Positions 2,371-48,816 of a DNA stretch of 64,000 nt are shown here, piece by piece (the first letter of the stretch is position 1; every line of letters begins with the position of its first letter). This DNA is from an uncultured Mycoplasmatota bacterium (GTDB taxonomy: Bacteria > Bacillota_I > Bacilli_A > RF39 > UBA660): the NCBI GenBank assembly GCA_900553835.1, contig USFF01000001.1, forward strand, positions 1,568 through 65,567, given 5' to 3'. The notes below the pieces were generated by a model. That model was not told the origin of the DNA. It ran no database searches and saw nothing but the letters and a program-made list of their open reading frames with translations. Position numbers and translations under genes: made by a program.

Positions 2371-3252
2371 CTAAAATTCATTAAAACCAAGTTCATTTAA
2401 ATATTTTTCTTTATCTCTCCATTTTTTTAATGTTCTAACATAAAGTTCAAGATACACTTGTTTCTTTAAAAGTACTTCCATATCTTTTCTAGCAAGCATT
2501 CCTATTTCTTTGAGCATTAAGCCTTTTTTACCTATAATAATTTTCTTTAAAGCTTCTCTATCTACTATAATATCTACATAAACATTAATAGTTTTATCAT
2601 CTTCTGTTAAATCTGAAAGTATTGTATGTACTGAATGAGGAACTTCCTCATTAGTTAAATTAAGTACTTTTTCTCTAACTATTTCAGCAAGTCTTTTTTC
2701 TATTGGTTCGCTTGTTTTTTCTTCCTTTGGGTAGTATTTAACATCACAAGTTAAATATTTCTTTAAAACCTCTATTAGTCTTTTAACATTATCTCCTGTT
2801 TCAGCACTTACTGGTACAATATCACTAAAAGGATATAAATCTTTAAGTTCATCTATTTTCTTTAATATTTCTTCATTAGATAGTTTATCTATTTTATTAA
2901 TAACTAAAATAACTGGTTTTTCTAATGATTTCATTTTATCTAAAACAAACATGTCGCCTTTACCTAGTTTTTCTTTAGCATCCATAACTAGTACTAAAGC
3001 ATCAGCATCATATGTACTATAATAAGCTTGACTATTTAATTTATTGCCAAGTTTATTAAGTGGCTTACTTATACCAGGAGTATCTATAAATACTATCTGT
3101 GTGTCTTCTTCATTATAAATACCTTGTACTAAACTTCTTGTTGTTCCTTGTTTATCACTTATGATAGCTACTTTTTCACCTACTATTTTATTTAAAAGTG
3201 TACTCTTTCCTACATTTGGCCTACCTACTATACTTACAAAACCACTTCTCAC
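2371..3252 (-). CDS. era: GTPase Era
   Basis: G motifs GRPNVGKSTLLN, DTPG and NKID, plus a C-terminal KH domain. 293 aa. Confidence 0.95.
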   Translation of the reverse strand: MRSGFVSIVGRPNVGKSTLLNKIVGEKVAIISDKQGTTRSLVQGIYNEEDTQIVFIDTPGISKPLNKLGNKLNSQAYYSTYDADALVLVMDAKEKLGKGDMFVLDKMKSLEKPVILVINKIDKLSNEEILKKIDELKDLYPFSDIVPVSAETGDNVKRLIEVLKKYLTCDVKYYPKEEKTSEPIEKRLAEIVREKVLNLTNEEVPHSVHTILSDLTEDDKTINVYVDIIVDREALKKIIIGKKGLMLKEIGMLARKDMEVLLKKQVYLELYVRTLKKWRDKEKYLNELGFNEF

Positions 3253-3629: not shown

Positions 3630-4085
3630 TTATCTTTCTACTCCTAAACTACTTAATATTTCATCTTGAAGGCCAAACATTTCTTTCTCATCTTTTTCAT
3701 TCATATGATCATATCCTAGTAAATGAAGTAAACCATGAACAAGTAAAAAACATATTTCTCTCTCAAAAGAATGGTTATAATCTTCTGCTTGAGAATGAGC
3801 TTTTTCTAAACTTATATATATTTCTCCTAAATCAGTTATATCACTTTTAATATTTTCATCATTATCCATAAATGCAAAACTAATAACATCAGTTTCTCTA
3901 TCTATATTTCTATAAATTTTATTTATCTCATGAATATGTTTATTATCTGTTAGTACTATACTAACAAAAGAATTGTTAACATTTAGCAGTTCACTCACTT
4001 TACACACCACTTTATCAAGTAATTGTAAATTCACTTTCTCATTAGTTAAATTAGTTAATTCATACTCCATAAAATTAGCCTCCAT
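3630..4085 (-). CDS. ybeY: rRNA maturation endoribonuclease YbeY
   Basis: HGLLHLLGYDH metal-binding motif. It is the first gene of the ybeY-cdd-era block. Confidence 0.9.
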   Translation of the reverse strand: MEANFMEYELTNLTNEKVNLQLLDKVVCKVSELLNVNNSFVSIVLTDNKHIHEINKIYRNIDRETDVISFAFMDNDENIKSDITDLGEIYISLEKAHSQAEDYNHSFEREICFLLVHGLLHLLGYDHMNEKDEKEMFGLQDEILSSLGVER

Positions 4086-5848: not shown

Positions 5849-8019
5849 TAGCTAGTGTACTTGTAGAATATACAGTTAAATCTTTAGATAGGACATTTGA
5901 CTATATTATTCCTCTAGAACTAATAAGTACCCTAAAAGTAGGACACAAAGTACTAGTACCTTTTGGCAAACAAATAGTTGAAGGCTTTGTTATGGATATT
6001 AAAAATGAAAAAGAAGAAAATATTGAATACAAAGAAATAATTAAAATAGTAGAAAAAGATTTTTGTTTAAATGAAGAACTACTAAAGTTAGGAGAGACTA
6101 TTTCTAAAGAAACTTTATCTACTAGAATGAGTGCTTACCAAGCTATGTTTCCTAAAGCACTTAAAGCTAAAAGCAAAGTAAATATTAATGTAAAAAAAGA
6201 AGTATATGTAAGAATTAATCCTTCATTTGATACTGAAAATTATATTATAAATAACAAAAGAAATTTAAAAGAAATAGAAATTATAAATAAACTAAAAAGT
6301 GGAGAATTAAAAAAGAGCTTAGTTTCATCTCCTTCACTTAATAGATTAATAGAAAAAAATATAGTTTTAACTAGGGAAGTTTTAGTTAATAGAAGTGTTG
6401 ACTTTATTAAAGAAGAGGAAAAAGATATAGTACTTACTAGAGAACAAAGTGAAGCATATAAAGAAATTAAAGAAAGCACTAATAACAAGATACTTCTATA
6501 TGGTGTAACTGGAAGTGGTAAAACTGAAATATACATTAAATTAATAAAAGATGCAATTAATGAGGGCAAAACTGCTTTAATGTTAGTACCTGAAATTAGT
6601 TTAACACCTCAGATAGTAAATAGATTTCTAAGTATTTTTGAAGGAAATGTAGCAGTTCTTCATAGTCAGTTATCTGAAGGAGAAAGATATGACGAATATA
6701 GAAGAATAGTAAACAAGGAAGTAAATATAGTAGTGGGTGCTAGAAGTGCTGTTTTTGCACCTCTTAAAAATATAGGAGTAATTATAATTGATGAATGTTC
6801 TAGTCAAAGTTTTAAACAAGATGTAAATCCTAAATATAATGCTATAGATGTTGCGTTCTTAAGAAGTGAAAATTATAACTCTAAAGTAATAATGGGAAGT
6901 GCAACTCCTTTACTAGAACAATATGCAAGAGGTTTAAAAGGAGTTTTTAAATTAGTCAAGTTAACTAAAAGAGTAAGCGAAAATTATCCTAAATATACAC
7001 TAGTTGATATGAATGAAGAAGTTAAAAAAAGAAATTTTGTTTTAAGTAATCAGTTAAAAGTAAAACTAGTAACTGAAGTTAATAAGGGACACCAAGTAAT
7101 TATTCTCTTAAATAGAAGAGGTTACTCTACATTCTTAAGTTGTTCAGCATGTGGTTATACACTAAAATGTCCTAAATGTGATATTTCTTTAATATATCAC
7201 AAATCATCCAATAATTTAACTTGCCACTACTGTGGATACTCTACTAAAATGAGTAAAGTATGCCCTAGCTGTAAAGAAGAAGCAATTAAAGATTTAGGAA
7301 TGGGTACAGAAAAACTAGAAGAATTAGTTTTAAAAGAATTTCCAAATTTAAGAGTAGTTAGAATGGACTATGATACAACTAGAAATAAAGGAAGTCATTC
7401 TAAAATAATTGAAGACTTTAAAAATCATAAATATGACATCTTAATCGGAACACAAATGATAAGTAAAGGATTAAACTTTAAAAATGTAACTTTAGTGGGT
7501 GTAATAAATGCTGATACATCTTTAAACATACCTGACTTTAGAAGTAGTGAAAGAACCTATGAACTACTTACTCAAACGGGAGGTAGAACTGGTAGGTATG
7601 ATCTTCCAGGAGAGGTATTAATTCAAACATATAATAAAGATAATTATTGTTTAAAGTGTGTTACACTAGATGACTATGAACTTTTCTATAATAAGGAAAT
7701 GGAAATAAGAAAAGCATTAAAGTATCCACCATACTACTATTTAACTTTAATTAAAATAAGTAGTGATAAATATGAAATTGCTAAAGAAGAAGCTAGTAAA
7801 GTAAAGAATATCTTATCTAAAAAACTTAATGAAGAATTCATAGTACTAGGACCTTCTGTTTCAAGTTTAGTTAAACTTAAAGATAGATATTATTTTCAAA
7901 TAATTATTAAATACAAAAAAGTATTAAATTTATTTGAAGTATTAAAAGAAATAAATGAACTTTATATTTCTTCTAAAGTAAATATTGATATTAATATAAA
8001 TCCTCTTAATTTGATGTAA
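5845..8019 (+). CDS. priA: primosomal protein N' (replication restart helicase PriA)
   Basis: Walker A GVTGSGKTE, a DEC(S) box, and Cys-rich zinc fingers (CSACGY..CPKC..CHYCGY..CPSC). 724 aa. Confidence 0.95.
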   Translation: MIASVLVEYTVKSLDRTFDYIIPLELISTLKVGHKVLVPFGKQIVEGFVMDIKNEKEENIEYKEIIKIVEKDFCLNEELLKLGETISKETLSTRMSAYQAMFPKALKAKSKVNINVKKEVYVRINPSFDTENYIINNKRNLKEIEIINKLKSGELKKSLVSSPSLNRLIEKNIVLTREVLVNRSVDFIKEEEKDIVLTREQSEAYKEIKESTNNKILLYGVTGSGKTEIYIKLIKDAINEGKTALMLVPEISLTPQIVNRFLSIFEGNVAVLHSQLSEGERYDEYRRIVNKEVNIVVGARSAVFAPLKNIGVIIIDECSSQSFKQDVNPKYNAIDVAFLRSENYNSKVIMGSATPLLEQYARGLKGVFKLVKLTKRVSENYPKYTLVDMNEEVKKRNFVLSNQLKVKLVTEVNKGHQVIILLNRRGYSTFLSCSACGYTLKCPKCDISLIYHKSSNNLTCHYCGYSTKMSKVCPSCKEEAIKDLGMGTEKLEELVLKEFPNLRVVRMDYDTTRNKGSHSKIIEDFKNHKYDILIGTQMISKGLNFKNVTLVGVINADTSLNIPDFRSSERTYELLTQTGGRTGRYDLPGEVLIQTYNKDNYCLKCVTLDDYELFYNKEMEIRKALKYPPYYYLTLIKISSDKYEIAKEEASKVKNILSKKLNEEFIVLGPSVSSLVKLKDRYYFQIIIKYKKVLNLFEVLKEINELYISSKVNIDININPLNLM

Positions 8020-10275: not shown

Positions 10276-10612
10276 ATATCTTAGGTAAACGCTGCATATA
10301 ATTATGTAGAGGAAAGTCCATACTCGCATAATCTGAGATTGATTATAGTGTTCGTGCTAGAGGAAAAAATAACTCTAGGTAGAGAAATCTAACGGCGATG
10401 AAAATGGAAAGTTCTTTCATGAGTAGTTGTAAAGTGCCATAGAGACGATGCATTTTAGGAATAAAATGAGTGGAACGCGGTAAACCCCACGAGCGAGAAA
10501 CCCAAATTTGGTAGGGGAGTCTACACAAATGAAATGAAAAGAGTGTAGGAGTTAATAACTAGATAAATGTTTACCACCCGTAAGGGCACAGAAAATGGCT
10601 TATTAGATATTT
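10274..10612 (+). ncRNA. rnpB: RNase P RNA, bacterial type B
   Basis: Conserved GAGGAAAGTCCAT, GTGCCA.AG.GACG, GGAACGCGGTAAACCCC.CGAGCGAGAAACCCAAATTTGGTAGGGG and ACAGAAAATGGCTTA blocks. P1 pairing is AAATATCT/AGATATTT. The ends are approximate. Confidence 0.9.
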
Positions 10613-10637: not shown

Positions 10638-11135
10638 ATGAAGGACATCGGTAGTCAATTTGAAGAAAAAAGACGAGAAATCGGAATTAAATTAGAAGAA
10701 GCTGCAAGTGATTTAGAAATCACAGTTGCTCAGCTTGAAAATTTAGAAGATGGTAATGTTAATGCTTTTAAAGACATTTTTTTCTTAAAAGAATTAATAA
10801 AAAAATATGCTATTTATCTAAATTTAGATGACAATAAAATTATGGAAGAATTTAATGACTTTGTATTTGATTTTACTAGTAAAATACCAGTTGAAGAAAT
10901 TGAAGAGAAAGTTAAAGAAATTGTAACTCAAAATGAAAAAGAAACAAGAAAGAAAATAAGTTCTCCTTATACTAGAAAAAAGGTTAGAAAAGCTAAACTT
11001 AGACCTGTATATGTATTTACATTAGTAACTGTTTTACTTGTTTCTATAACATTTATATTATTAAATGTATTTCTAAATAAACAAAAAGAAATTAATTATG
11101 TAGGAAGTGAAATATTTAATGAATATACCAAATAA
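10638..11135 (+). CDS. RodZ-like HTH-domain membrane protein
   Basis: N-terminal HTH, a basic linker and one TM helix. It lies immediately upstream of pgsA, like ymfM/rodZ in Bacillus. Confidence 0.65.
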   Translation: MKDIGSQFEEKRREIGIKLEEAASDLEITVAQLENLEDGNVNAFKDIFFLKELIKKYAIYLNLDDNKIMEEFNDFVFDFTSKIPVEEIEEKVKEIVTQNEKETRKKISSPYTRKKVRKAKLRPVYVFTLVTVLLVSITFILLNVFLNKQKEINYVGSEIFNEYTK

Positions 11136-11712
11136 AATAACTATAGCTAGAATAATATTATCTATAATTTGTATAATACTTTTAGTATTACCCTTAGAAA
11201 CTTTTGGAATTAATCTTCCACCTGTAGTAGTAACTCCAGCTATTAGAGTACCTGTTAAATATATAATATGTGGGTGTTTATTCTTAATAGCATCTACAAC
11301 AGACTTTATAGATGGACATATTGCAAGAAAATATAACTTAGTAACAGATTTTGGTAAAGTAATGGATGCAGTTGCTGATAAAATACTTGTTAATGGTGTT
11401 TTAATTGCACTTGCATGTAATGGTTTTATCCATATGATAGTGCCTATCGTAATTGTATGTAGAGATATATTTGTTGACTCTATTAAAATGGTTGTAGGAA
11501 ATAAAATAGGTGCAGTAGGAGCATCAAAACTTGGAAAACTTAAAACTATATTTATGATGACAGGTGTAACTTTGATGTTATTTTATAACTTACCATTTGA
11601 AATATGGGGTCTAAGAATTGCGGATGCTTTAATAATGATAGCAACTATTTTATCAGTTGTAAGTGGTATTCAATATTATGTTAAAAATAGAAAGTATATC
11701 TTTGAAAGTTAG
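11119..11712 (+). CDS. pgsA: CDP-diacylglycerol--glycerol-3-phosphate 3-phosphatidyltransferase
   Basis: CDP-alcohol phosphatidyltransferase motif DFIDGHIARKYNLVTDFGKVMDAVADK. Multiple TM helices. Confidence 0.9.
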   Translation: MNIPNKITIARIILSIICIILLVLPLETFGINLPPVVVTPAIRVPVKYIICGCLFLIASTTDFIDGHIARKYNLVTDFGKVMDAVADKILVNGVLIALACNGFIHMIVPIVIVCRDIFVDSIKMVVGNKIGAVGASKLGKLKTIFMMTGVTLMLFYNLPFEIWGLRIADALIMIATILSVVSGIQYYVKNRKYIFES

Positions 11713-11796
11713 ATATGCTTTTTTATTTAATGGGAACTACTTTATAGATTGAAATTAAATGAAAAAAAGTATATACTAAATACAAGAGGTGGAATT

Positions 11797-13206
11797 ATGA
11801 TATTATATAATTCATTAAGCGGAAAAAAAGAAGAGTTTATTTCTAATGTTAAGGGCAAAGTTTTAATGTATACTTGTGGTCCAACAGTATATAACTATGC
11901 TCACATTGGTAACTTAAGAACTTACATAATGGAAGATGTACTTGAAAAGTCTCTCAAATATTTGGGCTATGATGTTAAAAGAGCAATGAATATAACTGAT
12001 GTAGGTCACTTACAAAATGATAGTGATAATGGTAAAGATAAAATGGTAGAAGGTGCTAAAAAAGAAAATAAATCTGTTTTAGAAATAGCAAAATATTATA
12101 CTGAGGCATTTAAAAATGATTTTAAAAAATTAAATCTTAAATGGCCTACAATAGTAGTTCCGGCTTCATCATGTATTGATACATATATTGAAATGATTAC
12201 AAAATTACTAGATAAAGGTTTTGCCTACAAGAGTGGAGGAAATATTTATTTTGATACTTCTAAATTAGAAAAATATAATGTTTTTTCTAGTCAGGTAAAA
12301 GAAGAATTACTTGTGGGAGCTAGAGAAGATGTTGATACAGATGAAAATAAGAAAAATCAACAAGATTTTGTTTTATGGTTTACTAAATCAAAATTTGAAA
12401 ATCAAGCACTAAAGTGGGAAAGTCCATGGGGTACTGGTTATCCAGGATGGCATATAGAATGTTCGGGAATTAATTACAAATATTTAGGAGAATATTTAGA
12501 TATTCATTGTGGGGGAATAGATAATAAATTTCCACATCATACAAATGAGATAGCCCAGTGTGAAGGTCTTTTTGGACACAAATGGTGCAACTATTGGTTT
12601 CATGTATCTCATTTAAATTTGAAAGATGCGAAAATGAGTAAATCAAGTGGAAATTTTGTTACAGTAAGTAAATTAATTGAAATGGGTTATAATCCTATGG
12701 TATACAAATTATTTTGTTTACAATCTCATTACAGAAATACTTTAATTTTTAGTAATGAAACAATAGAAGGTGCTAAAAGTGTTTATACCTCAATTGTTAA
12801 AAAAATAAAGTTAATTGATCCAAATGAAGGTGATTTAAATAATGAAGTGATTGCAAAATACAGAAGTAAATTTAGTGAAGCTTTATCTAATGATTTAAAT
12901 ACTTCTTTAGCAATTACAGTACTTTTTGATATGTTAAAAGATAACATTAGTGGAAAAGAAAAAGCATTTTTATTAAATGACTTTGATACTGTTTTAGATT
13001 TAGATCTTTTATCATATTTGAATTCCGATAAAAACGAAAATATTGATAAAAATTTATTAGAATTTATAAATAGCAAAATAGAAGAGAGAAAAGAAGCAAA
13101 GAAAAATAAAGATTTTGCCTTAGCAGATTTTATTAGAAAAGAACTTGAAATTAAAGGAATAATTTTAAAAGATACAAGAGAAGGGACAGAGTACGAAATA
13201 ATATAA
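11797..13206 (+). CDS. cysS: cysteine--tRNA ligase
   Basis: HIGN (HIGH) and KMSKS motifs. The start was moved to ATG 11797, behind AGAGGTGG. Confidence 0.95.
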   Translation: MILYNSLSGKKEEFISNVKGKVLMYTCGPTVYNYAHIGNLRTYIMEDVLEKSLKYLGYDVKRAMNITDVGHLQNDSDNGKDKMVEGAKKENKSVLEIAKYYTEAFKNDFKKLNLKWPTIVVPASSCIDTYIEMITKLLDKGFAYKSGGNIYFDTSKLEKYNVFSSQVKEELLVGAREDVDTDENKKNQQDFVLWFTKSKFENQALKWESPWGTGYPGWHIECSGINYKYLGEYLDIHCGGIDNKFPHHTNEIAQCEGLFGHKWCNYWFHVSHLNLKDAKMSKSSGNFVTVSKLIEMGYNPMVYKLFCLQSHYRNTLIFSNETIEGAKSVYTSIVKKIKLIDPNEGDLNNEVIAKYRSKFSEALSNDLNTSLAITVLFDMLKDNISGKEKAFLLNDFDTVLDLDLLSYLNSDKNENIDKNLLEFINSKIEERKEAKKNKDFALADFIRKELEIKGIILKDTREGTEYEII

Positions 13207-13237
13207 TGTTTTTTGCCTCAAAAAGGAGTGACTAAAT

Positions 13238-14989
13238 ATGACAGATTTTATTAAAAATCAAGAAGAAAAATTGAAAGAAATTATTATAAAATGTGGTTAT
13301 ACAATAGATAACGTAAGCATTGTCCCATCAGTAAAACCTGAATTAGGTCAATTTCAATTTAATGGAGTTATGGAACTAGCACAAAGAAATAAGATTAACC
13401 CAAGAATAATTGCTGATGCTATAGTCCAAAAAATGAACGGTGACGAAGATTATAAAAATGTAAACGTAGCAGGACCTGGGTTTATAAATATTTCATTTTC
13501 AGATAAAGCATTATCTAATTATTTAGAATATTTAAGAACGCATATTACTGAGAAAACAAAAAAAGATGAAAATAAAAAAATCATCATAGATTATGGTGGA
13601 CCAAATGTTGCCAAAACTTTACATGTAGGTCACTTACGTAGTGCTAACATAGGAGAAGCACTTAAAAGGCTTTCAAAAGAATTGAACTATGAAGTAATAA
13701 GCGACATTCATTTAGGAGACTGGGGTAGACCAATGGGATTAATAATGCTTGAGTTAAAAGAAAAACACCCAGACTGGGTTTACTTTGATGAAAATTATGA
13801 GGGAGAATACCCAAGTGAATGTCCAATTTCAAATAGTGACCTAGAAAAGATGTATCCAGTAGCAAGTAACAAGGCTAAAGAAGATGAAGAATATCTTGAG
13901 GAAGCAAGAAACATTACAACAAAGTTGCAACGGAAACAAAAAGGTTACTATGAATTATGGAAGCAAATAGTTAAAATTTCTACTTCAGAAATCAAACACC
14001 TTTATGATAAACTTAACGTGTCATTTGATTTATGGAATGGCGAAAGTGATGCTGATGAATATGTTTCAGAAGTCATAAATTATTTAAAAGACAAAGGATT
14101 AGCATACGAAAGTGATGGAGCGCTTGTTATGGATGTTAGTTTACCAGATGATACTGCGGTAGTACCACCATTATTACTAGTTAAATCAAATGGTGCTATT
14201 TCTTACGAAATGACAGATTTAGCAACTTTATGGGAAAGGGTAAAAAATTATAGTCCTGATGAAATTTGGTATGTAGTAGACAAAAGACAAGATTTACATT
14301 TCGAACAAGTTTTTAGAGCAGCTTATAAATCAGGAATTGTGCCAAAAAATATAAAACTAGAATTTATTGGTTTTGGGACTATGAATGGAAAAGATGGAAA
14401 ACCATTTAAAACAAGAGATGGTGGGGTAATGTCTTTATCAAATCTAATTGATGCTGTAAAAAAAGCAACTTTAAATAAACTAAATCCTAATATAACTGGG
14501 AAAGATAGAGATGAAATTTCAGATGTATTAGCTGTTGGTGCACTTAAATATGCAGACTTACTTCCAAATAGATCGACTGATTATATTTTTGATGAAGAAA
14601 AATTCTGTGATTTTAATGGTAAAACTGGAATATATATATTATATTCTATAGTTAGAATAAGATCATTGTTAGCTAAAGCTAAAGAGCAAAATATTGCTAT
14701 TGGACCAATAAAACAGTTAACTTGTGACTCTGACAGAAATATTGCTATAAAAATACCTGAAATCTTTTCTATATTAGATAAATCCTTTAGAATAAAATCT
14801 CTTAATGATATAGCAGAATATTTGTATCAGTTAATAAATGTTTTTAATAATTTTTATACGTCTAACAGAATTTTAACAGAAAATGATGAATTAACAAGAG
14901 AGTCTTGGTTAGGGCTTGCTGAACTTGTATATAATATTAGTTTTAAATTAATAAATATTTTAGGAATAAAAGAGCCAAGAAAGATGTAA
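13238..14989 (+). CDS. argS: arginine--tRNA ligase
   Basis: 583 aa with the HVGHLRS class-I motif and a typical ArgS N- and C-terminal layout. Confidence 0.95.
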   Translation: MTDFIKNQEEKLKEIIIKCGYTIDNVSIVPSVKPELGQFQFNGVMELAQRNKINPRIIADAIVQKMNGDEDYKNVNVAGPGFINISFSDKALSNYLEYLRTHITEKTKKDENKKIIIDYGGPNVAKTLHVGHLRSANIGEALKRLSKELNYEVISDIHLGDWGRPMGLIMLELKEKHPDWVYFDENYEGEYPSECPISNSDLEKMYPVASNKAKEDEEYLEEARNITTKLQRKQKGYYELWKQIVKISTSEIKHLYDKLNVSFDLWNGESDADEYVSEVINYLKDKGLAYESDGALVMDVSLPDDTAVVPPLLLVKSNGAISYEMTDLATLWERVKNYSPDEIWYVVDKRQDLHFEQVFRAAYKSGIVPKNIKLEFIGFGTMNGKDGKPFKTRDGGVMSLSNLIDAVKKATLNKLNPNITGKDRDEISDVLAVGALKYADLLPNRSTDYIFDEEKFCDFNGKTGIYILYSIVRIRSLLAKAKEQNIAIGPIKQLTCDSDRNIAIKIPEIFSILDKSFRIKSLNDIAEYLYQLINVFNNFYTSNRILTENDELTRESWLGLAELVYNISFKLINILGIKEPRKM

Positions 14990-15466
14990 ATGAAGTTGTC
15001 TATGCGAGTGAAAAGTGAAGAATTAAGGAGATTTAAAACTAACGTTATTTATGACTATGGATACAGAGTGGTGTATTATTATGAAAAATATCATGAGGTG
15101 CCACAAACTTTATATGCAGAAAATATAGAAGATTTTATTTGTTTTTTCAAAGAGAAAAATAAAAAAATTAAATATAATGGTACTCAGGATTTATTAAAAA
15201 GATTTTTAGAAAAGGTGCCTGATGCATTAGGTGTTGCAATTTATGATATTGATCAAAATTGTATTGTAAAGTTAATTAAAGGTGGAGTAAAAAAAATTAA
15301 CGATACTGTAGTTTATAAAGAAGAATTAATTTATGATTATAACTATGTTACAGTTAAGGATGGATTTAGAATCGTTTATTTATATAATGATGGAACTTAT
15401 AAGCTTGGAGTAGGTGCTAAAAACATCGAGGATTTTATGAAAGAATTACTCCTTATGAACCTATAG
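14990..15466 (+). CDS. hypothetical protein with an internal duplication; the reading frame apparently continues to 15630 after a frameshift
   Basis: The start directly abuts the argS stop. Two modules share ..YDY.Y.VVY.Y...Y.....A.NIEDF. The matching tail of module 2 (..DLLNRYLEECQGVDGVALYNVDG) is in another frame at 15421-15630. Confidence 0.5.
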   Translation: MKLSMRVKSEELRRFKTNVIYDYGYRVVYYYEKYHEVPQTLYAENIEDFICFFKEKNKKIKYNGTQDLLKRFLEKVPDALGVAIYDIDQNCIVKLIKGGVKKINDTVVYKEELIYDYNYVTVKDGFRIVYLYNDGTYKLGVGAKNIEDFMKELLLMNL

Positions 15467-15687
15467 GTGAATTATGTGAAATTCCGCCATTTATATCAGT
15501 AGAAGATTTATTAAATAGATATTTAGAAGAATGCCAAGGAGTAGATGGGGTTGCATTATATAATGTAGATGGTACTTTAATTGATCAAAGGAATAGAATA
15601 AATTCTAATATAAAACAAAATTTAATTTGAGTGTATAAGTTGCACAGTGTATTTACTATAAAGTAGTTAAAAAACCTATATTTTAGA

Positions 15688-15715
15688 TTGACTTTTATAT
15701 TAAAAATTGTATAAT
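15688..15715 (+). promoter_or_regulatory. sigma-A type promoter of the small-ORF/ThiF-like/ABC-F operon
   Basis: TTGACT, 16 nt, TATAAT, with TG just upstream of the -10. Confidence 0.45.
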
Positions 15716-15757
15716 ATTATTAAAGAAGGGATAACAACTTCATTTGGTAGGAGGTAT

Positions 15758-15826
15758 ATGATGAAATTTAATGTAAAAAAAGTAACAGAAGCTAAATTTT
15801 CTTGTCACGTTGATCAAAACTGTTAA
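15758..15826 (+). CDS. 22-aa candidate precursor peptide MMKFNVKKVTEAKFSCHVDQNC
   Basis: GGAGG lies 5-8 nt upstream of tandem ATGs. It sits between a promoter and the ThiF-like gene and is followed by a hairpin. Not in the ORF track. Confidence 0.45.
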   Translation: MMKFNVKKVTEAKFSCHVDQNC

Positions 15827-15830
15827 TTAA

Positions 15831-15849
15831 AGCTCATTATTGAGCTTTT
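15831..15849 (+). terminator. hairpin (partial terminator/attenuator) between the small ORF and the ThiF-like gene
   Basis: AAGCTCA-TTAT-TGAGCTT stem-loop followed by TTTATCATT. Confidence 0.4.
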
Positions 15850-15870
15850 ATCATTATAACGGAGGTAAAA

Positions 15871-16893
15871 ATGTTAATTTTAAATACAACAAAACCATTT
15901 TATGTAGACAAGGTTAATAAAATAGTTAGAATGGGTAATTTTAAAGAAACGGGTAAAGAAATTGATTATGAGGATGAAATATTTTTATCTCTGATTAATA
16001 ATCTAAAAGAACCAATAGAGGAAAATGAACTTATAGAAAAAATTTTTAAAGAAACAAACATAGATAAAAATGAAGTCAAGAATATAATTGCGTATTTAAT
16101 AGAAGAAAATTTTATTATTAAAAATGAAGAATATGAAAAAATATGTAAAAGTGAGTATAGTAGGCAAGATTTATTTTTTTCACTATTTACAGATAATTTT
16201 AAGCAGAACAAAAAAATATTTGCTGACAAAACTGTTTTAGTATTAGGCTTGGGTGGAGTAGGTGCTAATGTTGCATATATGCTTTCACGTGCAGGTTTTG
16301 AAAATTTTATTTTGGTCGATAATGATATTGTTGAGTATAGTAATTTAATAAGACAATATCCATATCAGAAGAGGGACTTAGGAAGAAATAAAACTGAAGC
16401 TCTAGCATCTAAATTAGATGGAAATATAGTAACCAAAAAAATTATGATAGATAAAAAAGAACAAATTTTAAAAGATATTCAAAAATGTGATATTGTTATA
16501 TGTACTTTAGATAAACCTTTTAGAGTTATTAGAAGATTGATTAATGATATATGTGTCAGTGAAAATAAACCTGTTATTTTTGCCGGTTTCGCTGAACATG
16601 TTGCAATGATAGGACCATTTGTGATACCGCATGAAACAGCTTGTTTAAAATGTATAGACAAAGAAACAACAGATATACCTCTAGAAAATGTCAAAAACAT
16701 ACCATCTTATGGTCCGTTGTGTGCGTTGATTTCTTCAATTGTTGTTAATGAAATTATAAAATATTTTAATAATTATACGGAATATAATTTGAGAGGAAAA
16801 ACAATGATGTTTAATTTTGCAACATATGATACTCAAATAATTAATTGGAATAAAAAAGATACATGTGAGGTGTGTGCTAAATATGATAGTTAA
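15871..16893 (+). CDS. ThiF/E1-family adenylyltransferase with an N-terminal winged-helix-like extension (MccB/PaaA-like)
   Basis: GLGGVGANVA nucleotide loop, DNDIVEYSNLIRQ, and two CxxC pairs (CLKC, CEVC). About 95 aa precede the YSRQ motif. 340 aa. Confidence 0.8.
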   Translation: MLILNTTKPFYVDKVNKIVRMGNFKETGKEIDYEDEIFLSLINNLKEPIEENELIEKIFKETNIDKNEVKNIIAYLIEENFIIKNEEYEKICKSEYSRQDLFFSLFTDNFKQNKKIFADKTVLVLGLGGVGANVAYMLSRAGFENFILVDNDIVEYSNLIRQYPYQKRDLGRNKTEALASKLDGNIVTKKIMIDKKEQILKDIQKCDIVICTLDKPFRVIRRLINDICVSENKPVIFAGFAEHVAMIGPFVIPHETACLKCIDKETTDIPLENVKNIPSYGPLCALISSIVVNEIIKYFNNYTEYNLRGKTMMFNFATYDTQIINWNKKDTCEVCAKYDS

Positions 16894-18484
16894 TAATATA
16901 AAAGTAGAATTTAATGGTAATTTAATAATAGATGATGTATCATTTAAAATAAATAAAGGGGAAAAAGTAGGACTAGTAGGTAAAAATGGAAGTGGTAAAA
17001 GTACTCTTTTAAAAACTATTTCTGCTGAAAGCAATAAATCTTTTGTTAAGACTAATGGTGAAACAATTGGTTATTTAAAACAAGAAATCGAAGAAGAATA
17101 TTATGATTACAGTGTACTTGAATATATTAGAGAAGTTACTAAAGTAGAGAGTTTAGAAAATAAATTAAATGAACTTTCTTTGAATTTGACTGAAGATAGA
17201 ATGGAAGAATATACTCTTGTGTATAATGAATTTTTAAGCATAGATGGTTACAATTTTGAAAGTAATCTTGAAATTATAAAAAATGGTCTAAATTTGAGGG
17301 AACCACTTGATACCAAAATTAAAAAATTATCTGGCGGAGAAAAAATAAAAGTTTTATTAATAGAATTATTAATGTTAAACAAAGATATATTACTCTTAGA
17401 TGAACCTACAAATAATCTTGATACCGAAGCAATAACTTGGTTAGAAAAATATTTAAAACAAAGTGCAAAAAAAATGATTATTGTATCACATGATGAAATT
17501 TTTCTTAATAATATAGTAAACAAAATATTTGAATTATCAGATGGGAAAATTAAAGAGTATAACATGACTTATAATAAGTATTTAATAGCTAAAGAAAATG
17601 AATATAATAGAGAAAAAGAAGAGTATTATAAAACTAAAGAAGAAAAAGAAAGACTTAAAAGTGAATTAGAAAAAGCAAAAAGATGGGCTAATTCTGGAAA
17701 CAGTAAAAAAGCGCATAATGATAATGATAAAATAGCTAATAATTATGCTAAGGAAAGAACAAGTACATCAAATATAAAAAGAATAACAAGAAATTTAGAT
17801 AAGTTAAATATTCCTAATTTTGAAGAAAAAAAGCCTATAGACGTATTTTTTAGTTTAGATGATGACAAAGGAAATAAAGACATAGTTTTGGATAATCTTG
17901 TATGTGGCTATGATACATTTAAAACTGTTCTTCTTAATTTAACAATACCATATGGGATTAAAGTTCAAATAAAAGGTTTTAATGGAAGTGGAAAAACTAC
18001 TTTAATAAAAACTATTTTAGGACAAATAGATCCTATTAAAGGAACTATTAGTGTAGGTTCTAAAGTTAAGATGGGATATATTTCACAAAATACATTATTA
18101 GAAGGTAATAAGTCTGTTATAGAGTATCTTACTGAAAATATGAATGAAGTTAATTATTCCTTTGTGTTTACTTTGCTTGAAAAATTAAACATTAGTTATG
18201 AAGACAAAGATAAAATTTATTCTAAATTGTCACCAGGAGAAAGAACAAGAGTTGCTATTGCTAAACTTGCACTTTTAAAAACCAATGTATTAATATTAGA
18301 TGAAGTAACTAATCATCTTGATAAAGAAGCGCTTGACTTAATATATGAACTTATAAGTAGTTATGAAGGAACTATAATTAGTATTTCACACAATAGAAAA
18401 TATAATGAACTATTAGATGCAGACATTTTATTAGATATGAGTACTGGTTTAATAGAAAATTTAAAATTAACAAAAAAGTTATAA
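16883..18484 (+). CDS. ABC-F family ATPase (two ABC cassettes, charged linker, no TM segments)
   Basis: GKNGSGKST/LSGGEK/LLLDEPTNNLD and GFNGSGKTT/LSPGER/LILDEVTNHLD motifs. A Lys/Glu-rich inter-domain linker. The ATG overlaps the ThiF-like stop by 11 nt. Confidence 0.85.
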   Translation: MIVNNIKVEFNGNLIIDDVSFKINKGEKVGLVGKNGSGKSTLLKTISAESNKSFVKTNGETIGYLKQEIEEEYYDYSVLEYIREVTKVESLENKLNELSLNLTEDRMEEYTLVYNEFLSIDGYNFESNLEIIKNGLNLREPLDTKIKKLSGGEKIKVLLIELLMLNKDILLLDEPTNNLDTEAITWLEKYLKQSAKKMIIVSHDEIFLNNIVNKIFELSDGKIKEYNMTYNKYLIAKENEYNREKEEYYKTKEEKERLKSELEKAKRWANSGNSKKAHNDNDKIANNYAKERTSTSNIKRITRNLDKLNIPNFEEKKPIDVFFSLDDDKGNKDIVLDNLVCGYDTFKTVLLNLTIPYGIKVQIKGFNGSGKTTLIKTILGQIDPIKGTISVGSKVKMGYISQNTLLEGNKSVIEYLTENMNEVNYSFVFTLLEKLNISYEDKDKIYSKLSPGERTRVAIAKLALLKTNVLILDEVTNHLDKEALDLIYELISSYEGTIISISHNRKYNELLDADILLDMSTGLIENLKLTKKL

Positions 18485-18546
18485 ATTTGCATTAATGAAA
18501 AAAGTGTGCTATAATAAGTACACTTTTTTATTTAAGGGGGAAAAGT

Positions 18547-19716
18547 ATGGAATCATTTGATGGTAAATTAAAAAACGACTATATTAATGTTTTAAAAGTT
18601 AATGGTTTTTCAGATAAGGATATTAATAAAATAGAAAGACTTTTGTATAAATATAAAGATGTATTAACTGATTTTAGAGACTTAGTTGGTGACAGTCTTT
18701 TACCGGATAAATTTTATTTTTTTAATAATATGAAACATTTTGCGTATTTGTTTAGCAGTGATATTGATAAAACTGTAACAAAAGAATACTTGAATTTTAA
18801 TAAATTTATTTATTATTTAGTCAAACTTATAGGGCCTAGTTTTTTATTATCTAAACAAGTAATTGAAAATAGAAATATTTTAAAAGGTATAAATGTTAAA
18901 GATAATGGTATTAATCTTCCAAAAGAACCGGTAATGTGGACACCTAATCATCACTTCAAAGACGATGTTTTATGTTCAATGTTAAAAACTCAAAGACCCA
19001 GTTGTATGGCTTTTGCTAGTATTCCTCATTTTTTTAACTCATTTGATGGAATACTTGCTTATTCACTTGGAGTTATACTGATAAATAGAAAAAGTGAGGA
19101 AAGTAGAAGTACATGCTTACCAAAAATGAAAAAAGTAGTTGAACTTGGTTCAGATCTAATAGTTTGGCCTGAGGGTGTTTGGCATAAAAATCCAAACGAT
19201 TTAATTTTACATTTGTGGCCAGGTATATATAGGTGTTCAATTGAAACAGGAATAAAGGCGGTACCGATGATACATTATGTGAGAGATACTACTCAAAGAG
19301 AAAAGAAAAATAAAAATTTAATTCATACTGTAATTGATGAACCGGTTGACTTTAATACCATGCATGGGATGGGAGAACGAGCTTGCTTAGAATATTATAG
19401 AGATATAATGTGTACATGGTATTACTTAATGATGGAAAAATATGGACAAAGTACTAGAGAGGAAGAACTTAAGGGATATGATAATTCTGTTGAGGCATGG
19501 GAAGAACATTTAAATAATCTTCTTAATAATGCAGCAAGGTATGATAAAAGCATTGAGACAACAGCAAGTTATCGTATGAATGATTATGTCACTCCACTAG
19601 ATGTTTATGAAAATATTGCTTCACTTGATGTAACCAAAAGTAATGCTTTAGAAGTAGCAAATGCCAGAAAATTAATAAAAGAATATAAAATTAATGATTT
19701 TCAAAGTAGATTTTAA
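18547..19716 (+). CDS. PlsC/LPLAT-family acyltransferase-like protein
   Basis: NHHFKDD (HX4D) and WPEG motifs. Its own TTGCAT-17-TATAAT promoter lies at 18487-18515. Confidence 0.55.
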   Translation: MESFDGKLKNDYINVLKVNGFSDKDINKIERLLYKYKDVLTDFRDLVGDSLLPDKFYFFNNMKHFAYLFSSDIDKTVTKEYLNFNKFIYYLVKLIGPSFLLSKQVIENRNILKGINVKDNGINLPKEPVMWTPNHHFKDDVLCSMLKTQRPSCMAFASIPHFFNSFDGILAYSLGVILINRKSEESRSTCLPKMKKVVELGSDLIVWPEGVWHKNPNDLILHLWPGIYRCSIETGIKAVPMIHYVRDTTQREKKNKNLIHTVIDEPVDFNTMHGMGERACLEYYRDIMCTWYYLMMEKYGQSTREEELKGYDNSVEAWEEHLNNLLNNAARYDKSIETTASYRMNDYVTPLDVYENIASLDVTKSNALEVANARKLIKEYKINDFQSRF

Positions 19717-19782
19717 AAGAGATAATTTTCTCTTTTTTTATTATTTGTGGTATGTTATAATTATAATTGGAAGTGATGGATA

Positions 19783-21606
19783 ATGGCAGGAATTTTATTA
19801 CCGATATGTGCTACATTTTTTTCGTTATTATTAACAATAATATATTTTTCTAAAAAGAGAATTGATTTAGTTGAGAATAAAATTTATTCATTTATGATAC
19901 CAATAGTTTTAATAGATAGTGTTTTAGTTTCTTTAGTACAGGGAATAGGTTTAAACGGAATAAATTCTATAAGCAATATATTTATTTCTTTAATAAATAA
20001 AATTGATTTTATGCTTTTAGTAGTTTATTCTAATTGTATATTATTTTATATTATACTTATAACTTATCCAAAGGTGAAAAACAAATTTAAGTTTTTATTA
20101 TCAGCCTTTTCTGTTTTAGATATTTTAGTATTTATTTTCATAGCACTTGGAAAAGTAATTATTATTAGTAAAGGACATAACAACAGTGTAGAAGGTTCTT
20201 CATTGATGACTACTCTTATAGTTTGTGGAATATATATATTTAGTTCAATAGTTATTTCTATCATTAATATTAAAAAAATTGATAAAAGATATATACCTGT
20301 TTTTGCAAGTATCGGGATAGCTCTTTTCTTAATTCCAATGTTTAAAATTAATCCATACTTAATAGTTGTGTCTATCACTCTGACTTTTATAAATTACATT
20401 ATGTTCTTCACAATAGAAAATCCAGATGTTAAAATGGTAAAAGAACTAGAAATAGCTAAAGATGCAGCAGTAAAAGCAAATAAAGCTAAAAGTGAATTTT
20501 TAAGTAGTATGTCACATGAACTTAGAACACCACTTAATGCAATAGTATGTTTTAGTGAATTATTAGAAACTAAAGAAGGACTAGATAAAGAAAGTAAAGA
20601 TTTTGCTAAAGATATAGTAAATGCTAGTCATAATTTATTAGAGTTAGTAAATGGGGTACTTGATATAAGTAAAATAGAAGCAGGTAAAATGGAAGTAATA
20701 AATAAAGAGTATAATGCTAAAGAGTTATTTAATTCACTAAGTACAATGGTTATTCCTAGAATAGGAGATAAAAAGATAGAATTTAAAACACGTTTAGCAG
20801 AAGATTTACCTTGTGTACTTAATGGAGATACTGGTAAAATAAAACAAATAATACTTAATTTACTTACAAATGCAGTTAAATATACTGACTATGGATGTAT
20901 AGATTATGATATAGAATGTTTAAATGATTTTAAAAATAATAGAACAAAGTTAATAGTAAGTGTTAGGGATACAGGAAGGGGAATAAAAGAAGAAGATATA
21001 AATAGATTATTTCAGAAATTTGAAAGAATTGATGAAGATAGGAATACTACAATAGAAGGAACTGGACTAGGACTTGCAATAACACAAAGTTTAGCTGATC
21101 TTATGGGTGGAAAAATTAAAGTAACTTCTAGATATGGATATGGTTCTACATTTACATTTGTATTTGAACAAGATGTAGTATCATTTAATGAAGTAGAAGA
21201 AAAGAAAGAGGAAGAAATTATAGAAGAGAAAGTAGACTTTAGTAATAAAAGTATACTAGTAGTAGATGATTCTAAACTTAACTTAAAGGTAGCAGAGAAT
21301 GTATTAAAAGAATATAATGTAAACATCTTTACATGTATAAGTGCAAAAGAATGTTTAGATTACTTAAGTATAGGTAAATATGATATAATATTAATGGATA
21401 TAATGATGCCTGTTATGAATGGAGTAGAGGCCTTAAAAGAAATAAAAAAACTAGGAGTAGAAACTCCTGTAATAGCTTTAACTGCAGATGCAATAGATGG
21501 ACAAGAGGACAAATATTTAAAAGAAGGTTTTGATGGTTATTTATCTAAACCAATTGATAAAAATGAATTAAAAAAGATATTAAATAAGTATTTGAAAGGA
21601 GAATGA
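19783..21606 (+). CDS. hybrid sensor histidine kinase (multi-TM sensor, HisKA, HATPase, receiver)
   Basis: H-box SHELRTPLNAI, N/G boxes (DTGRGI, GTGLGLAI), and a C-terminal REC domain (VVDDS..LMDIMMP..K). Confidence 0.9.
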   Translation: MAGILLPICATFFSLLLTIIYFSKKRIDLVENKIYSFMIPIVLIDSVLVSLVQGIGLNGINSISNIFISLINKIDFMLLVVYSNCILFYIILITYPKVKNKFKFLLSAFSVLDILVFIFIALGKVIIISKGHNNSVEGSSLMTTLIVCGIYIFSSIVISIINIKKIDKRYIPVFASIGIALFLIPMFKINPYLIVVSITLTFINYIMFFTIENPDVKMVKELEIAKDAAVKANKAKSEFLSSMSHELRTPLNAIVCFSELLETKEGLDKESKDFAKDIVNASHNLLELVNGVLDISKIEAGKMEVINKEYNAKELFNSLSTMVIPRIGDKKIEFKTRLAEDLPCVLNGDTGKIKQIILNLLTNAVKYTDYGCIDYDIECLNDFKNNRTKLIVSVRDTGRGIKEEDINRLFQKFERIDEDRNTTIEGTGLGLAITQSLADLMGGKIKVTSRYGYGSTFTFVFEQDVVSFNEVEEKKEEEIIEEKVDFSNKSILVVDDSKLNLKVAENVLKEYNVNIFTCISAKECLDYLSIGKYDIILMDIMMPVMNGVEALKEIKKLGVETPVIALTADAIDGQEDKYLKEGFDGYLSKPIDKNELKKILNKYLKGE

Positions 21607-21607: not shown

Positions 21608-22339
21608 ATGAATAACGAATATTTAAAAAATGCTGGAATTAATGTAGATGAAGTAATGAACTTTTGGGGAGATATTGAAGCTTATAAAGATAACTTACTA
21701 GAATTTTTAACCTCTGTAGATACAAAAATAAAAGAACTAGAAAGTTATAAAAATAATACTGAAATAAGTAGTTATACCATGCTTGCCCATAGCTTAAAGA
21801 GTGAAACAAGATATTTAGGTTTAAATAAATTATCTGATATATTTTATACTCATGAACTTAAAGGCAAAGAAAATAATGTTGACTACATAAAAAGTAACTT
21901 TACTGAAATAGAAAATGGAGTTAATAAAGTTAAAAGTGATTTAAAAGACTTTTTAAATAGTACAACTATTAAGAAGAGTTTATTAGTAGTAGATGACTCT
22001 AATATAATAATTAATTATATAGAAAACTTAGTAAAAAGTGATTATAATGTAATAAGAGCTAATAATGGAATAGAGGCTGTAAATAAAATAAATGAAAATA
22101 TATATGCACTTTTACTTGATATAAATATGCCTAAAAGTACTGGTATAGATGTTTTAAAATATATGAATGATAATGATTTAATAGATAAAATACCAGTAGT
22201 AATTATAACTGGCAATGATACAAGTAATCAAATAAAAGAATTAATTGGTTATAATGTTTTAGATGTACTTAATAAACCATTTACACCTGATAATATAAAA
22301 AGAGTATTAACTTTAATAGAGAATTTTCATAATAATTAG
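21608..22339 (+). CDS. Hpt-domain plus receiver-domain phosphorelay protein
   Basis: AHSLKSETRYLG is an Hpt histidine motif, followed by a REC domain (LVVDDS..LLDINMP). There is no output domain. Confidence 0.8.
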   Translation: MNNEYLKNAGINVDEVMNFWGDIEAYKDNLLEFLTSVDTKIKELESYKNNTEISSYTMLAHSLKSETRYLGLNKLSDIFYTHELKGKENNVDYIKSNFTEIENGVNKVKSDLKDFLNSTTIKKSLLVVDDSNIIINYIENLVKSDYNVIRANNGIEAVNKINENIYALLLDINMPKSTGIDVLKYMNDNDLIDKIPVVIITGNDTSNQIKELIGYNVLDVLNKPFTPDNIKRVLTLIENFHNN

Positions 22340-33257: not shown

Positions 33258-33332
33258 TGGAGCAAGCGATGGGAATCGAACCCACGTCTCAGCCTTGGCA
33301 AGGCCACGTACTAGCCGTTGTACTACGCCTGC
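33258..33332 (-). tRNA. tRNA-Gly (GCC)
   Basis: A manual cloverleaf works: GCAGGCG acceptor, anticodon loop TTGCCAA, GTTCGATTC T-loop, encoded CCA. Terminator hairpin at about 33215-33245. Confidence 0.9.
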
Positions 33333-35783: not shown

Positions 35784-35867
35784 AACTTAAGAATAGTTCT
35801 TGAGTTTTTCTTTTGTATATATTATAATTAAATAGAAAGATATGAAGAGGAAAGGAGAATTCATATT

Positions 35868-35998
35868 TAGCGCCAGAGCCTTAAATGGTTGACGAGGATG
35901 GTAGTTATCGATAATTCGGCGGATGCTATCACGGATAAGTAATCGTTAGAAGTATTACAAAAAATAAAATCAAGATTATAACAAAAAATACTTCATAC
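35868..35998 (+). promoter_or_regulatory. glmS ribozyme/riboswitch
   Basis: AGCGCCAGA...GACGAGGATGG...TTCGGCGGATGC core. It lies directly upstream of glmS. Confidence 0.9.
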
Positions 35999-36024
35999 TA
36001 ATTTTTTAGTATGGAGGAATTTTT

Positions 36025-48739: not shown

Positions 48740-48816
48740 TGGTGGAGAATGTGGGACTTGAACCCGCGACCCCCTGCGTGCAAGGCAGGTGCTCTAGCCA
48801 ACTGAGCTAATTCCCC
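48740..48816 (-). tRNA. tRNA-Ala (UGC)
   Basis: GGGGAAT acceptor with G3:U70, anticodon loop CTTGCAC, and an encoded CCA. There is one C50-A64 mismatch in the T stem. Confidence 0.9.

Follow-up and report, generated by a model that had tools for sequence, protein, structure and literature searches.

A peptide, ThiF-like enzyme and ABC-F operon of uncultured gut Bacilli as a candidate minimal RRE-ThiF-class RiPP locus

Sequence analysis of a 64,000-nt stretch of contig USFF01000001.1 of an uncultured Mycoplasmatota bacterium (hereafter the window; positions given without a locus name refer to it) revealed a compact operon at 15688-18484, composed of genes encoding a 21-residue peptide, a 340-amino acid (aa) ThiF-family enzyme and a 533-aa ABC-F ATPase. 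We propose that this is a minimal operon of the RRE-ThiF class of peptides that are made on the ribosome and modified after translation (RiPPs; RRE, RiPP recognition element), in which the ABC-F protein is the likely ribosome-protecting self-immunity factor, and we put the probability of this reading at roughly one half. RRE-ThiF enzymes constitute an enzyme-defined class, whose members adenylate a carboxylate of the peptide that is then captured by an internal nucleophile (PMC12250964, PMC12596934, PMC12150305, PMC11256085). The features of this class that can be read from a sequence, i.e. an E1 domain, a fused N-terminal domain and an adjacent precursor gene, are all present in the window locus. 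The precursor family is new and occurs in two architectures, and the ABC-F partner of one of them is unprecedented in the literature searched. The original prediction, made from the letters of the window alone, had described the region as a peptide-modification locus, and this view is supported both by the recurrence of the short upstream open reading frame (ORF) and ABC-F neighbour among homologues and by the modelled fold of the N-terminal domain of the enzyme.

A profile of the enzyme scanned against species genomes returned 31 loci. All 26 of those that include upstream DNA contain a peptide ORF of 20-21 residues with its own ribosome-binding site (RBS) and with its stop codon 44-78 nt 5′ of the enzyme gene; the ABC-F gene is located downstream in almost all homologous loci. 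The encoded peptides have the consensus MKFxVKKLxxxKF[A/S/E]CHVD[Q/E][N/H]C, in which a basic, leader-like N-terminal part with the motif [V/I][K/R]K[V/I/L] precedes a C-H-V-D-Q-x-C core that reaches the stop codon. In the window, the ORF counted from the first ATG (15758-15826, + strand) encodes MMKFNVKKVTEAKFSCHVDQNC. Since the homologues show 21 residues, and the RBS spacing is also better from the second ATG, the precursor gene was assigned to 15761-15826 (+) with the product MKFNVKKVTEAKFSCHVDQNC, one residue shorter than the 22-codon ORF originally predicted.

For an independent test, only the core F-x-C-H-V-D-Q-x-C-stop was back-translated and a metagenome collection was scanned blind. 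All 36 matches proved to be the 3′ end of a 20-21-aa peptide ORF, with zero chance matches elsewhere, and a ThiF-like gene came next in each of the 35 sites with room downstream. Among 44 distinct nucleotide versions, residues C15, H16, V17, D18 and C21 are unchanged, an invariance that is independent for the loci found via the enzyme and partly circular for those found by the motif. The core codons vary synonymously (TGT/TGC, CAT/CAC, GTA/GTT/GTC, GAT/GAC). The C-terminal residue is Cys in 44/44 versions, and the penultimate Asn varies to His or Arg. The short ORF is thus a genuine gene and the partner of the enzyme. When viral contigs were scanned for the core motif, the only match was fortuitous and lay within an unrelated gene, and full-text literature searches, with incomplete journal coverage, returned no mention of CHVDQ[N/H]C. 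One locus, L023, carries a precursor ORF of only 11 residues (5887-5922, MKFACHVDQNC) from which the leader is deleted, and there the tblastn alignment with the window enzyme does not start before query residue 7; this copy is possibly decaying.

The same core accompanies a more distant branch of the enzyme family. Four ThiF homologues (P0111, P0239, P0241 and P0244) are 33-43% identical to the window protein, and in 3/3 of the corresponding loci with upstream DNA a peptide precedes the enzyme gene: MKIEIKKVEKAETTCHVDQRC, MKIEVKKVEKAEPTCHVDQTC and MKVMELDIEEIEEVETTCHVDQRC, 21-24 aa in length and ending in TCHVDQ[R/T]C. The overlapping downstream partner in this branch (L032, 950-3228; L081, 1766-4054; L082, 4858-7147; L083, 138-2245) is a 363-380-residue HExxH membrane protein with many transmembrane segments and weak similarity to Peptidase_M50 and to the daptide protease; an alpha/beta hydrolase gene is sometimes next. 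Judged from its genes, this variant resembles a typical RiPP cluster of the leader-removing, export-coupled kind. Because the core persists with ThiF homologues that are paired with the HExxH protein and not with an ABC-F, the peptide belongs with the enzyme. Locus L081 also contains a ToxN toxin gene and a RamC_N/protein-kinase gene resembling class III/IV lanthipeptide synthetases (47-670 and 7101-7964), which suggests a region rich in bacteriocin and defence genes.

Two further matches of a remote ThiF type were not accepted as family members: P0112 is 29% identical and lies in a molybdopterin context beside MoaE, ThiS and MoaC genes, and the context of P0114 is a radical SAM/MFS/decarboxylase one.

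The ThiF-family ORF of the window (15871-16893, +) encodes a protein whose Pfam ThiF domain spans residues 103-333 (E = 1.4e-43), and whose scores are far under the curated thresholds set for ThiF, MoeB, TcdA and TOMM docking proteins. Among solved structures, a sequence search placed MccB first (E = 3e-29, residues 60-335), followed by ThiF (1e-16) and PaaA (2e-11); identity to MccB is approximately 23-25%. An AlphaFold2 model built on 69 homologues (pLDDT 93.7, pTM 0.90) places four beta-strands and three helices (pLDDT ~90-96) ahead of the E1 fold. In Foldseek comparisons the full chain, N-terminal domain included, matched MccB (TM 0.75-0.80, E ~1e-25) and PaaA (TM 0.74), whereas ThiF, MoeB and ubiquitin-type E1s spanned the C-terminal domain only (TMq ~0.60). 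The modelled fold is thus that of MccB. The additional ~95 N-terminal residues (residues 1 to ~95; 15871-16155, +), previously taken as the hallmark of an MccB/PaaA layout, are confirmed as such by this full-length match, and the domain models as a peptide-binding one (RRE or peptide clamp) of the MccB/PaaA type.

The adenylation domain (16156-16893, +) retains the GxGxxG, SNLxRQ and paired CxxC signatures noted earlier. Across 27-69 homologues, G126, G128, G131, N158 and D214 are invariant and R161 and K174 nearly so, while S157-N158-L159-x-R161-Q162 and the four-Cys zinc site (C258/C261, C332/C335) are invariant or nearly so. In the N-terminal domain, R20, G22 and N23 are invariant in 27 close homologues and conserved at >=90% in 69. 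The ATP- and Mg-binding residues align with the catalytic residues of MccB and correspond to Arg167, Lys180 and Asp225 of EnfB (PMC12250964). On the strength of these invariant nucleotide-binding, zinc-site and N-terminal positions, the enzyme looks catalytically competent and peptide-binding, unlike the degenerate docking proteins that partner YcaO enzymes. An assignment to the latter was rejected: no locus contains a YcaO gene, the TIGR03603 score is 60.9 bits against a cut-off of 187.65, and the ATP-binding residues are kept.

The regulatory signals around these genes are also conserved. A sigma-70-type promoter, TTGACT-16-TATAAT (15688-15715, +), matches the consensus at 11 of 12 positions and is among the top two promoter-like sites of the 11000-20000 segment. 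Taken as a whole, promoter-like matches do not exceed the level expected by chance for such AT-rich DNA (71 found, 66 expected), but the position of this one is kept across related loci, with a mean best score of 10.6/12 versus 8.8 in shuffles, and in most of them the -10 element ends 40-58 nt 5′ of the peptide ATG. The Shine-Dalgarno sequence GGAGG (15750-15754, +) precedes the peptide gene, as does a comparable RBS in all related loci, and a second GGAGG lies ahead of the 340-aa ORF. Between the two genes is a hairpin (15829-15848, +) with an 8-bp stem, a 4-nt loop and a following U-rich stretch; its minimum free energy is -9.5 kcal/mol (z = -3.5), and 0/200 shuffles were as stable. A hairpin whose sequence differs by locus occurs between the peptide stop codon and the enzyme RBS in 26/26 loci, mostly with a U-run next to it. 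This structure is probably a partial terminator. The operon is closed by a second terminator-like hairpin (18498-18529, +; 13-bp stem, -18.5 kcal/mol, z = -6.3) with a U-run behind it. Rfam scanning detected no riboswitch or leader RNA in the operon. Most of this layout had been anticipated in the original prediction: the promoter, the GGAGG with its ATG, the 340-aa ThiF-family ORF overlapping a 533-aa ABC ATPase by 11 nt, and the hairpin past the ABC-F stop codon were all found where it had placed them, and a hairpin does follow the short ORF, with a stem of 8 bp and not the 7 bp given. Its parallel with microcin C also holds, since mccA and mccB are likewise split by a terminator hairpin, and a promoter-peptide-leaky terminator-enzyme arrangement has been demonstrated for them (PMC4231749).

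The third gene (16883-18484, +) begins inside the ThiF-like gene, at an ATG that creates an 11-nt overlap. Its 533-aa product contains two nucleotide-binding domains, recognized by Pfam as two ABC_tran stretches, joined by a long interdomain linker, and the maximum Kyte-Doolittle value over a 19-residue window is 1.48; it is therefore a two-cassette ATPase with no hydrophobic segment, as had been read from the sequence. In approximately 55 loci the ABC-F gene abuts or overlaps the ThiF-like gene, with spacings of -11 to ~+8 nt, and all-against-all clustering of flanking ORFs identified it as the only universal neighbour. Pairwise identities of the two proteins are correlated (r = 0.90, 42 loci). 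The maintenance of this adjacency in ~55 loci despite lost synteny argues for selection on the linkage itself. The sole exception among loci with enough downstream DNA is L068, a low-coverage (1.8x) contig in which the peptide gene and an intact ThiF-like gene (1-2572) are followed by ORFs that, judged by eye, are rplM-like and DNA methyltransferase-like; this may reflect either misassembly or a real rearrangement.

Full-length alignments of the ABC-F protein were obtained with the models for EttA, Uup and Sal, the one with the Sal family in a single stretch, and a homologue, P0205, carries the NCBI name 'ribosomal protection-like ABC-F'. Its nearest solved relatives over the whole protein are YbiT, YheS, ARB1 and EttA (~1e-60 to 1e-55). 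When the linker was searched alone, the best matches were MsrE, VmlR/ExpZ, VgaA(LC) and VgaL, all of the antibiotic-resistance (ARE) type. The span from H-loop 1 into Walker A 2 is 179 residues, compared with 183-190 in MsrE/VmlR/VgaA, 179 in a Sal-type protein and 155-159 in YbiT/EttA, so that the window protein exceeds the last by ~20-24 residues. Known producer ABC-Fs accompany polyketide, lincosamide or streptogramin pathways. Our full-text literature searches, again with incomplete journal coverage, found no description of an ABC-F in a RiPP or ThiF-like cluster.

Linkage in the reverse direction was assessed with six ABC-F orthologues (58-63% identical) sampled regardless of the presence of a ThiF-like gene. 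Such a gene lies upstream in two of them and is absent from four. Two unlinked copies share 99% identity with linked ones from other samples, which indicates that, as far as these sequences go, presence of the ThiF-like gene varies at the strain level. In three of the four unlinked lineages the last 8-20 ThiF-like codons have been kept directly 5′ of the ABC-F start (L075, ~3958-4000; L078, ~2960-3000; L079, ~2965-3000), and these remnants end in ...NDCEVCGNDSK, ...KCEVCSK and ...NSDCGCV. The C-E-V-C codons (TGTGAGGTGTGT) include the sequence GAGGTG (16867-16872, + strand, in the window), which is probably the Shine-Dalgarno sequence of the ABC-F gene, and this would explain why a 3′ fragment of the ThiF-like gene survives. 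Seven loci (L024, L026, L030, L031, L050, L064 and L072) have a ThiF-like gene with a frameshift or a truncation, in each case at a distance from the contig ends; the ABC-F gene is intact in L024, L030 and L050 and disrupted in L064. Individual cases could be either pseudogenisation or assembly error. Taken with the unlinked copies and the 3′ remnants, the broken genes lead us to conclude from the sequence record that the linked state is ancestral and that the peptide and enzyme genes have been lost repeatedly, with retention of the ABC-F gene.

We hypothesize the following course of events. The strong promoter would drive the 21-residue precursor gene, and the leaky hairpin would keep the peptide transcript above that of the enzyme. 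The MccB-type N-terminal domain would bind the basic leader MKFxVKK[L/V/I], and the E1 domain, with ATP and Mg, would adenylate a carboxylate of the core, either the side chain of Asp18 or the C-terminus. A Cys thiol could then capture the acyl-adenylate, the most probable closure being a thiolactone macrocycle, between Asp18 and Cys21 (for which GrcB is the precedent) or between Cys15 and the C-terminus (as in autoinducing peptides). The ABC-F protein, translationally coupled to the enzyme gene, would bind the ribosome and shield it from the product as self-immunity, and strains without the biosynthetic genes would keep it as orphan immunity. The separate parts of this scheme differ in strength. 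A ribosome-directed product with the ABC-F as self-immunity is a plausible inference whose chances we set a little below even; we favour it because of the translational coupling, the one-way linkage, the linker of ARE length, the pattern of loss resembling that of orphan immunity, and the precedent of producer ABC-Fs (PMC8546547). Thiolactone chemistry, suggested by the RRE-ThiF precedents and by a core that ends in D-Q-N-C and contains a second Cys and a His, is somewhat more tentative. The most specific version, in which a Cys-dependent thiolactone-type macrocycle binds near the peptidyl-transferase centre or exit tunnel and the ABC-F is a dedicated immunity protein, is possible but doubtful.

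Several observations weigh against this proposal. The ABC-F protein scores 375.7 bits on the NCBIfam model NF000355 ('ribosomal protection-like ABC-F'), just under the cut-off of 380, and over its whole length it is closest to the housekeeping proteins YbiT, YheS and EttA. Its orthologues are more widespread than the ThiF-like gene, and the distant branch described above has no ABC-F at all; given its wider spread and housekeeping likeness, the protein may be an intrinsic factor of the lineage. The conserved module of the ABC-F branch contains neither an exporter (as predicted, no membrane exporter belongs to it) nor a leader protease, which leaves the release of a secreted antibiotic unexplained. 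A core that is near-invariant across enzymes only 33-45% identical would be unusual for an antibiotic selected in an arms race, and a role as signal, cofactor or metal binder would suit it just as well. The thiolactone proposal, finally, argues from one precedent with a different spacing, E-x-x-x-C in place of the D-x-x-C found here.

These points are best accommodated by the strongest alternative, which we regard as possible but rather less probable than self-immunity. It accepts the peptide and ThiF-like enzyme as a true RiPP pair, takes the ABC-F for an intrinsic translation or resistance factor or an LmrC-like regulator, and makes the product a signal or metal-binding peptide; the two-gene cassette would then sit in the ABC-F operon for co-expression. 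The 4/6 sampled lineages with an ABC-F orthologue and no ThiF-like gene, the whole-protein matches to YbiT, YheS and EttA, and the branch without an ABC-F all favour an intrinsic role. Extreme conservation of the core would suit a signal or a metal ligand, Cys, His, Asp and Cys being classic metal ligands, and signalling would be compatible with the repeated occurrence, close to the ABC-F gene of linked as well as unlinked loci, of a hybrid histidine kinase that has ~6-7 membrane segments. The example of LmrC shows that an ABC-F of a biosynthetic cluster can serve as a signalling component (PMC8546547). However, an intrinsic factor does not account for an overlapping or abutting adjacency held in ~55 loci where all other synteny is lost, nor for a linker whose length and best matches are those of antibiotic-resistance ABC-Fs. 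Its retention after repeated loss of the producer genes is also predicted by orphan immunity, and a signal molecule would meet the same lack of an exporter.

Genes for ARE ABC-Fs are commonly regulated by upstream leader peptides. The short ORF could accordingly be a regulatory leader or arrest peptide, with attenuation at the hairpin controlling a resistance ABC-F; the terminator-like hairpin after the ORF and a conservation that, in the manner of arrest peptides, is strongest in the residues directly preceding the stop codon would both fit. We nevertheless consider this very unlikely, and rejected it as the main role of the ORF, since the peptide tracks the ThiF-like gene and not the ABC-F gene, occurring with ThiF homologues that lack an ABC-F. 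Unlinked ABC-F copies, without a ThiF-like gene upstream, are preceded by other sequence or by the 3′ remnant, from which absence of the peptide is inferred. Furthermore, the distance from stop codon to hairpin varies from ~3 to ~30 nt, no anti-terminator pairing with the ORF is evident, and the enzyme keeps a highly conserved peptide-binding domain.

An equally improbable product is a Trojan horse of the microcin C type, in which a nucleotide joined to the peptide C-terminus through an N-P bond would give a non-hydrolysable mimic of an aminoacyl-adenylate and act against cysteinyl-tRNA synthetase (CysRS). MccB is indeed the closest solved relative of the enzyme by sequence and by fold, the peptide-hairpin-enzyme order is that of mccA-mccB (PMC4231749), and genes for CysRS (cysS, 11749-13206) and arginyl-tRNA synthetase (ArgRS) lie just upstream of the operon in the window. 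The succinimide/N-P chemistry of MccB, however, requires the side-chain amide of a C-terminal Asn (PMC11256085, PMC12150305), whereas here Cys is always the last residue, and His, Arg or Thr can stand in for the penultimate Asn. No homologue of MccC, MccD, MccE or MccF was found near the window operon or among the conserved neighbours, in agreement with the original prediction. The CysRS and ArgRS genes were found in no related locus, and we therefore also rejected them as immunity paralogues against a Cys-adenylate mimic.

Least probable of all is sulfur-carrier activation of the ThiF/MoeB kind, which would turn the peptide C-terminus into a thiocarboxylate or acyl-persulfide for a sulfur-transfer cofactor: the adenylation domain is ThiF/MoeB-like and the peptide, besides a second Cys, has an invariant one at its C-terminus, but it lacks a Gly-Gly C-terminus and is, at 21 residues, too short for a beta-grasp fold, the module contains no rhodanese, cysteine desulfurase or acceptor-pathway gene, and the extra N-terminal domain is typical of RiPP enzymes, with MccB and PaaA better matches than ThiF and MoeB. 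Consistent with this, the predicted lack of a ThiS/MoaD-like partner was borne out near the window operon and among the conserved neighbours, as was that of a YcaO gene in every locus. An anti-phage defence system was likewise rejected, PADLOC having returned only generic E1-domain and ABC-ATPase matches and the scan of viral contigs only the fortuitous one.

The surroundings of the operon are those of an AT-rich Gram-positive-type genome. The only Rfam matches in the window are a class B RNase P RNA (10277-10607), a glmS ribozyme (35858-36004) and two tRNA genes (33261-33332 and 48743-48816, both on the - strand), consistent with a Bacillota-type chromosome and without bearing on the operon, and among species genomes those most closely related are 'Clostridium sp. 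CAG:628' and metagenome assemblies of uncultured gut 'Bacilli'/Bacillota. The PlsC-like acyltransferase gene at 18547-19716, once suggested as a fourth member of the operon, has to be set aside: a weak homologue occurs only in the closest relatives, and it is absent from most loci. Farther downstream are genes encoding the hybrid histidine kinase (19783-21606, ~6-7 N-terminal membrane segments) and an Hpt/receiver protein (21608-22339). Homologous kinases are found near the ABC-F gene in ThiF-linked loci (L001, L002, L008, L018, L045, L049, L067 and L069) and in the unlinked L075 and L079, there beside a gene for an AMP-binding enzyme. Upstream, directly behind the stop codon of the ArgRS gene, is a 158-aa ORF (14990-15466) that matched nothing in Pfam, NCBIfam or PADLOC and is not kept beside the operon elsewhere.

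In at least 12 other loci, a divergent gene just upstream of the peptide promoter encodes a Cys-rich protein of ~215 aa (KYGYTCDINQIYC ... EVGCGYIPILS ... GFRPC ... YLCPC ... DDCPIIIGK). It was located in L020 (5050-5700, - strand), L077 (354-983, -), L080 (1050-1700, -), L011, L012, L013, L019, L021, L022, L024, L025, L026 and L028. This protein has no Pfam match, shows weak similarity to SAM-dependent methyltransferases and is absent from the window.

RRE-ThiF enzymes are an emerging class, and every member characterised so far has brought new chemistry, namely N-P adenylation or the formation of a bicyclic imide, of a thiolactone, of a macrocyclic imide or of an indolylamide. To these the present family adds an unstudied, strictly conserved CHVDQxC core ending in Cys, a minimal three-gene architecture and an ABC-F partner pointing to the ribosome as a possible target. 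The system is small, a 21-mer peptide and two soluble proteins. Should the self-immunity reading be correct, these uncultured gut Bacilli would hold the first case of a RiPP paired with an ARE-type ABC-F, and uncultured bacteria of the human and animal gut would be the source of a new peptide scaffold that targets the ribosome. The persistence of ARE-like ABC-Fs in commensals would also gain a natural explanation, with natural peptide antibiotics as the selective force that maintains ARE-type ABC-Fs in the gut microbiome.

Comparison with known systems shows which parts of the locus have precedents. The products of the class include an N-P linked AMP formed by MccB at a C-terminal Asn, modification of a Glu side chain by PaaA and an indolylamide made by IndF (PMC12250964, PMC12596934, PMC12150305, PMC11256085); the RRE-ThiF enzymes GrcB, EnfB and IndF have themselves been described (PMC12250964, PMC12150305). 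The enzyme class is thus broader than the original prediction allowed for, and the locus belongs to one already known; the ABC-F partner and CHVDQNC core are absent from the literature searched.

MccB/MccA of microcin C7 (Escherichia coli) share with the present pair a two-domain enzyme made of a peptide clamp and an E1 domain with a four-Cys zinc site, and a short precursor gene directly upstream with a terminator hairpin between the two (PMC4231749). MccA, however, has 7 residues and ends in an obligatory Asn, compared with 21 residues and an invariant terminal Cys here, and because of this difference N-P adenylation via a succinimide is not expected. The microcin C accessory proteins, the MccC exporter, the MccD/E tailoring enzymes and the MccF immunity protein, have the ABC-F in their place. 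A microcin C system was rejected, as both the C-terminal Asn and the MccC-F genes are absent. A system of the pantocin A type was excluded as well: no neighbour resembles the PaaB oxidase or the PaaC transporter, MccB is matched better than PaaA, and the peptide has no Glu-Glu-Asn motif, its core being C-terminal and not internal with a follower sequence behind it.

For a core that ends in D-Q-N-C, the best precedent in chemistry is provided, by analogy, by GrcB/GrcA of Streptococcus pneumoniae, compared by description. In their precursor, too, Cys is the last residue, an acidic one lies a few positions before it and a His is close by; GrcB adenylates the acidic side chain and the C-terminal Cys closes the ring, joining the side chain of Glu35 to Cys39 as a thiolactone (PMC12596934, PMC12250964). 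GrcA differs in its 39 residues and E-x-x-x-C spacing from the 21 residues, D-x-x-C and second invariant Cys found here. The grc cluster further encodes two radical SAM enzymes, a stand-alone RRE, a transporter and quorum-sensing regulators, and since none of these is among the conserved neighbours, identity with the GRC cluster was rejected.

A precursor of the same size is EnfA of enterofaecin (WWIII-type, Enterococcus faecalis), a 21-residue peptide with a (V/I)RKA leader motif that recalls [V/I][K/R]K[V/I/L], encoded in a cluster without a leader peptidase (PMC11256085). EnfB is likewise an RRE-ThiF protein and binds ATP and Mg through the same residues (PMC11256085, PMC12250964). EnfA, however, has a hydrophobic core (WWIVI), which EnfB turns into a macrocyclic imide or which is amidated, whereas the core described here is polar and Cys-rich; the enf cluster contains four transporters and AgrC/LytT-type regulators and no ABC-F. 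The locus is not an enterofaecin cluster.

For the ABC-F protein, the relevant comparison is with the ARE type (VmlR, MsrE, VgaA and Sal; OleB, CarA and LmrC). As a whole sequence it is no closer to these proteins than to YbiT, YheS and EttA. It nevertheless shares with them two nucleotide-binding domains without a membrane domain, and a linker of ARE length whose best matches are MsrE, VmlR, VgaA and VgaL. ABC-Fs are established as self-resistance or signalling factors of antibiotic producers, and, like the self-resistance proteins among them, the window protein is encoded within what would be its own biosynthetic operon (PMC8546547).

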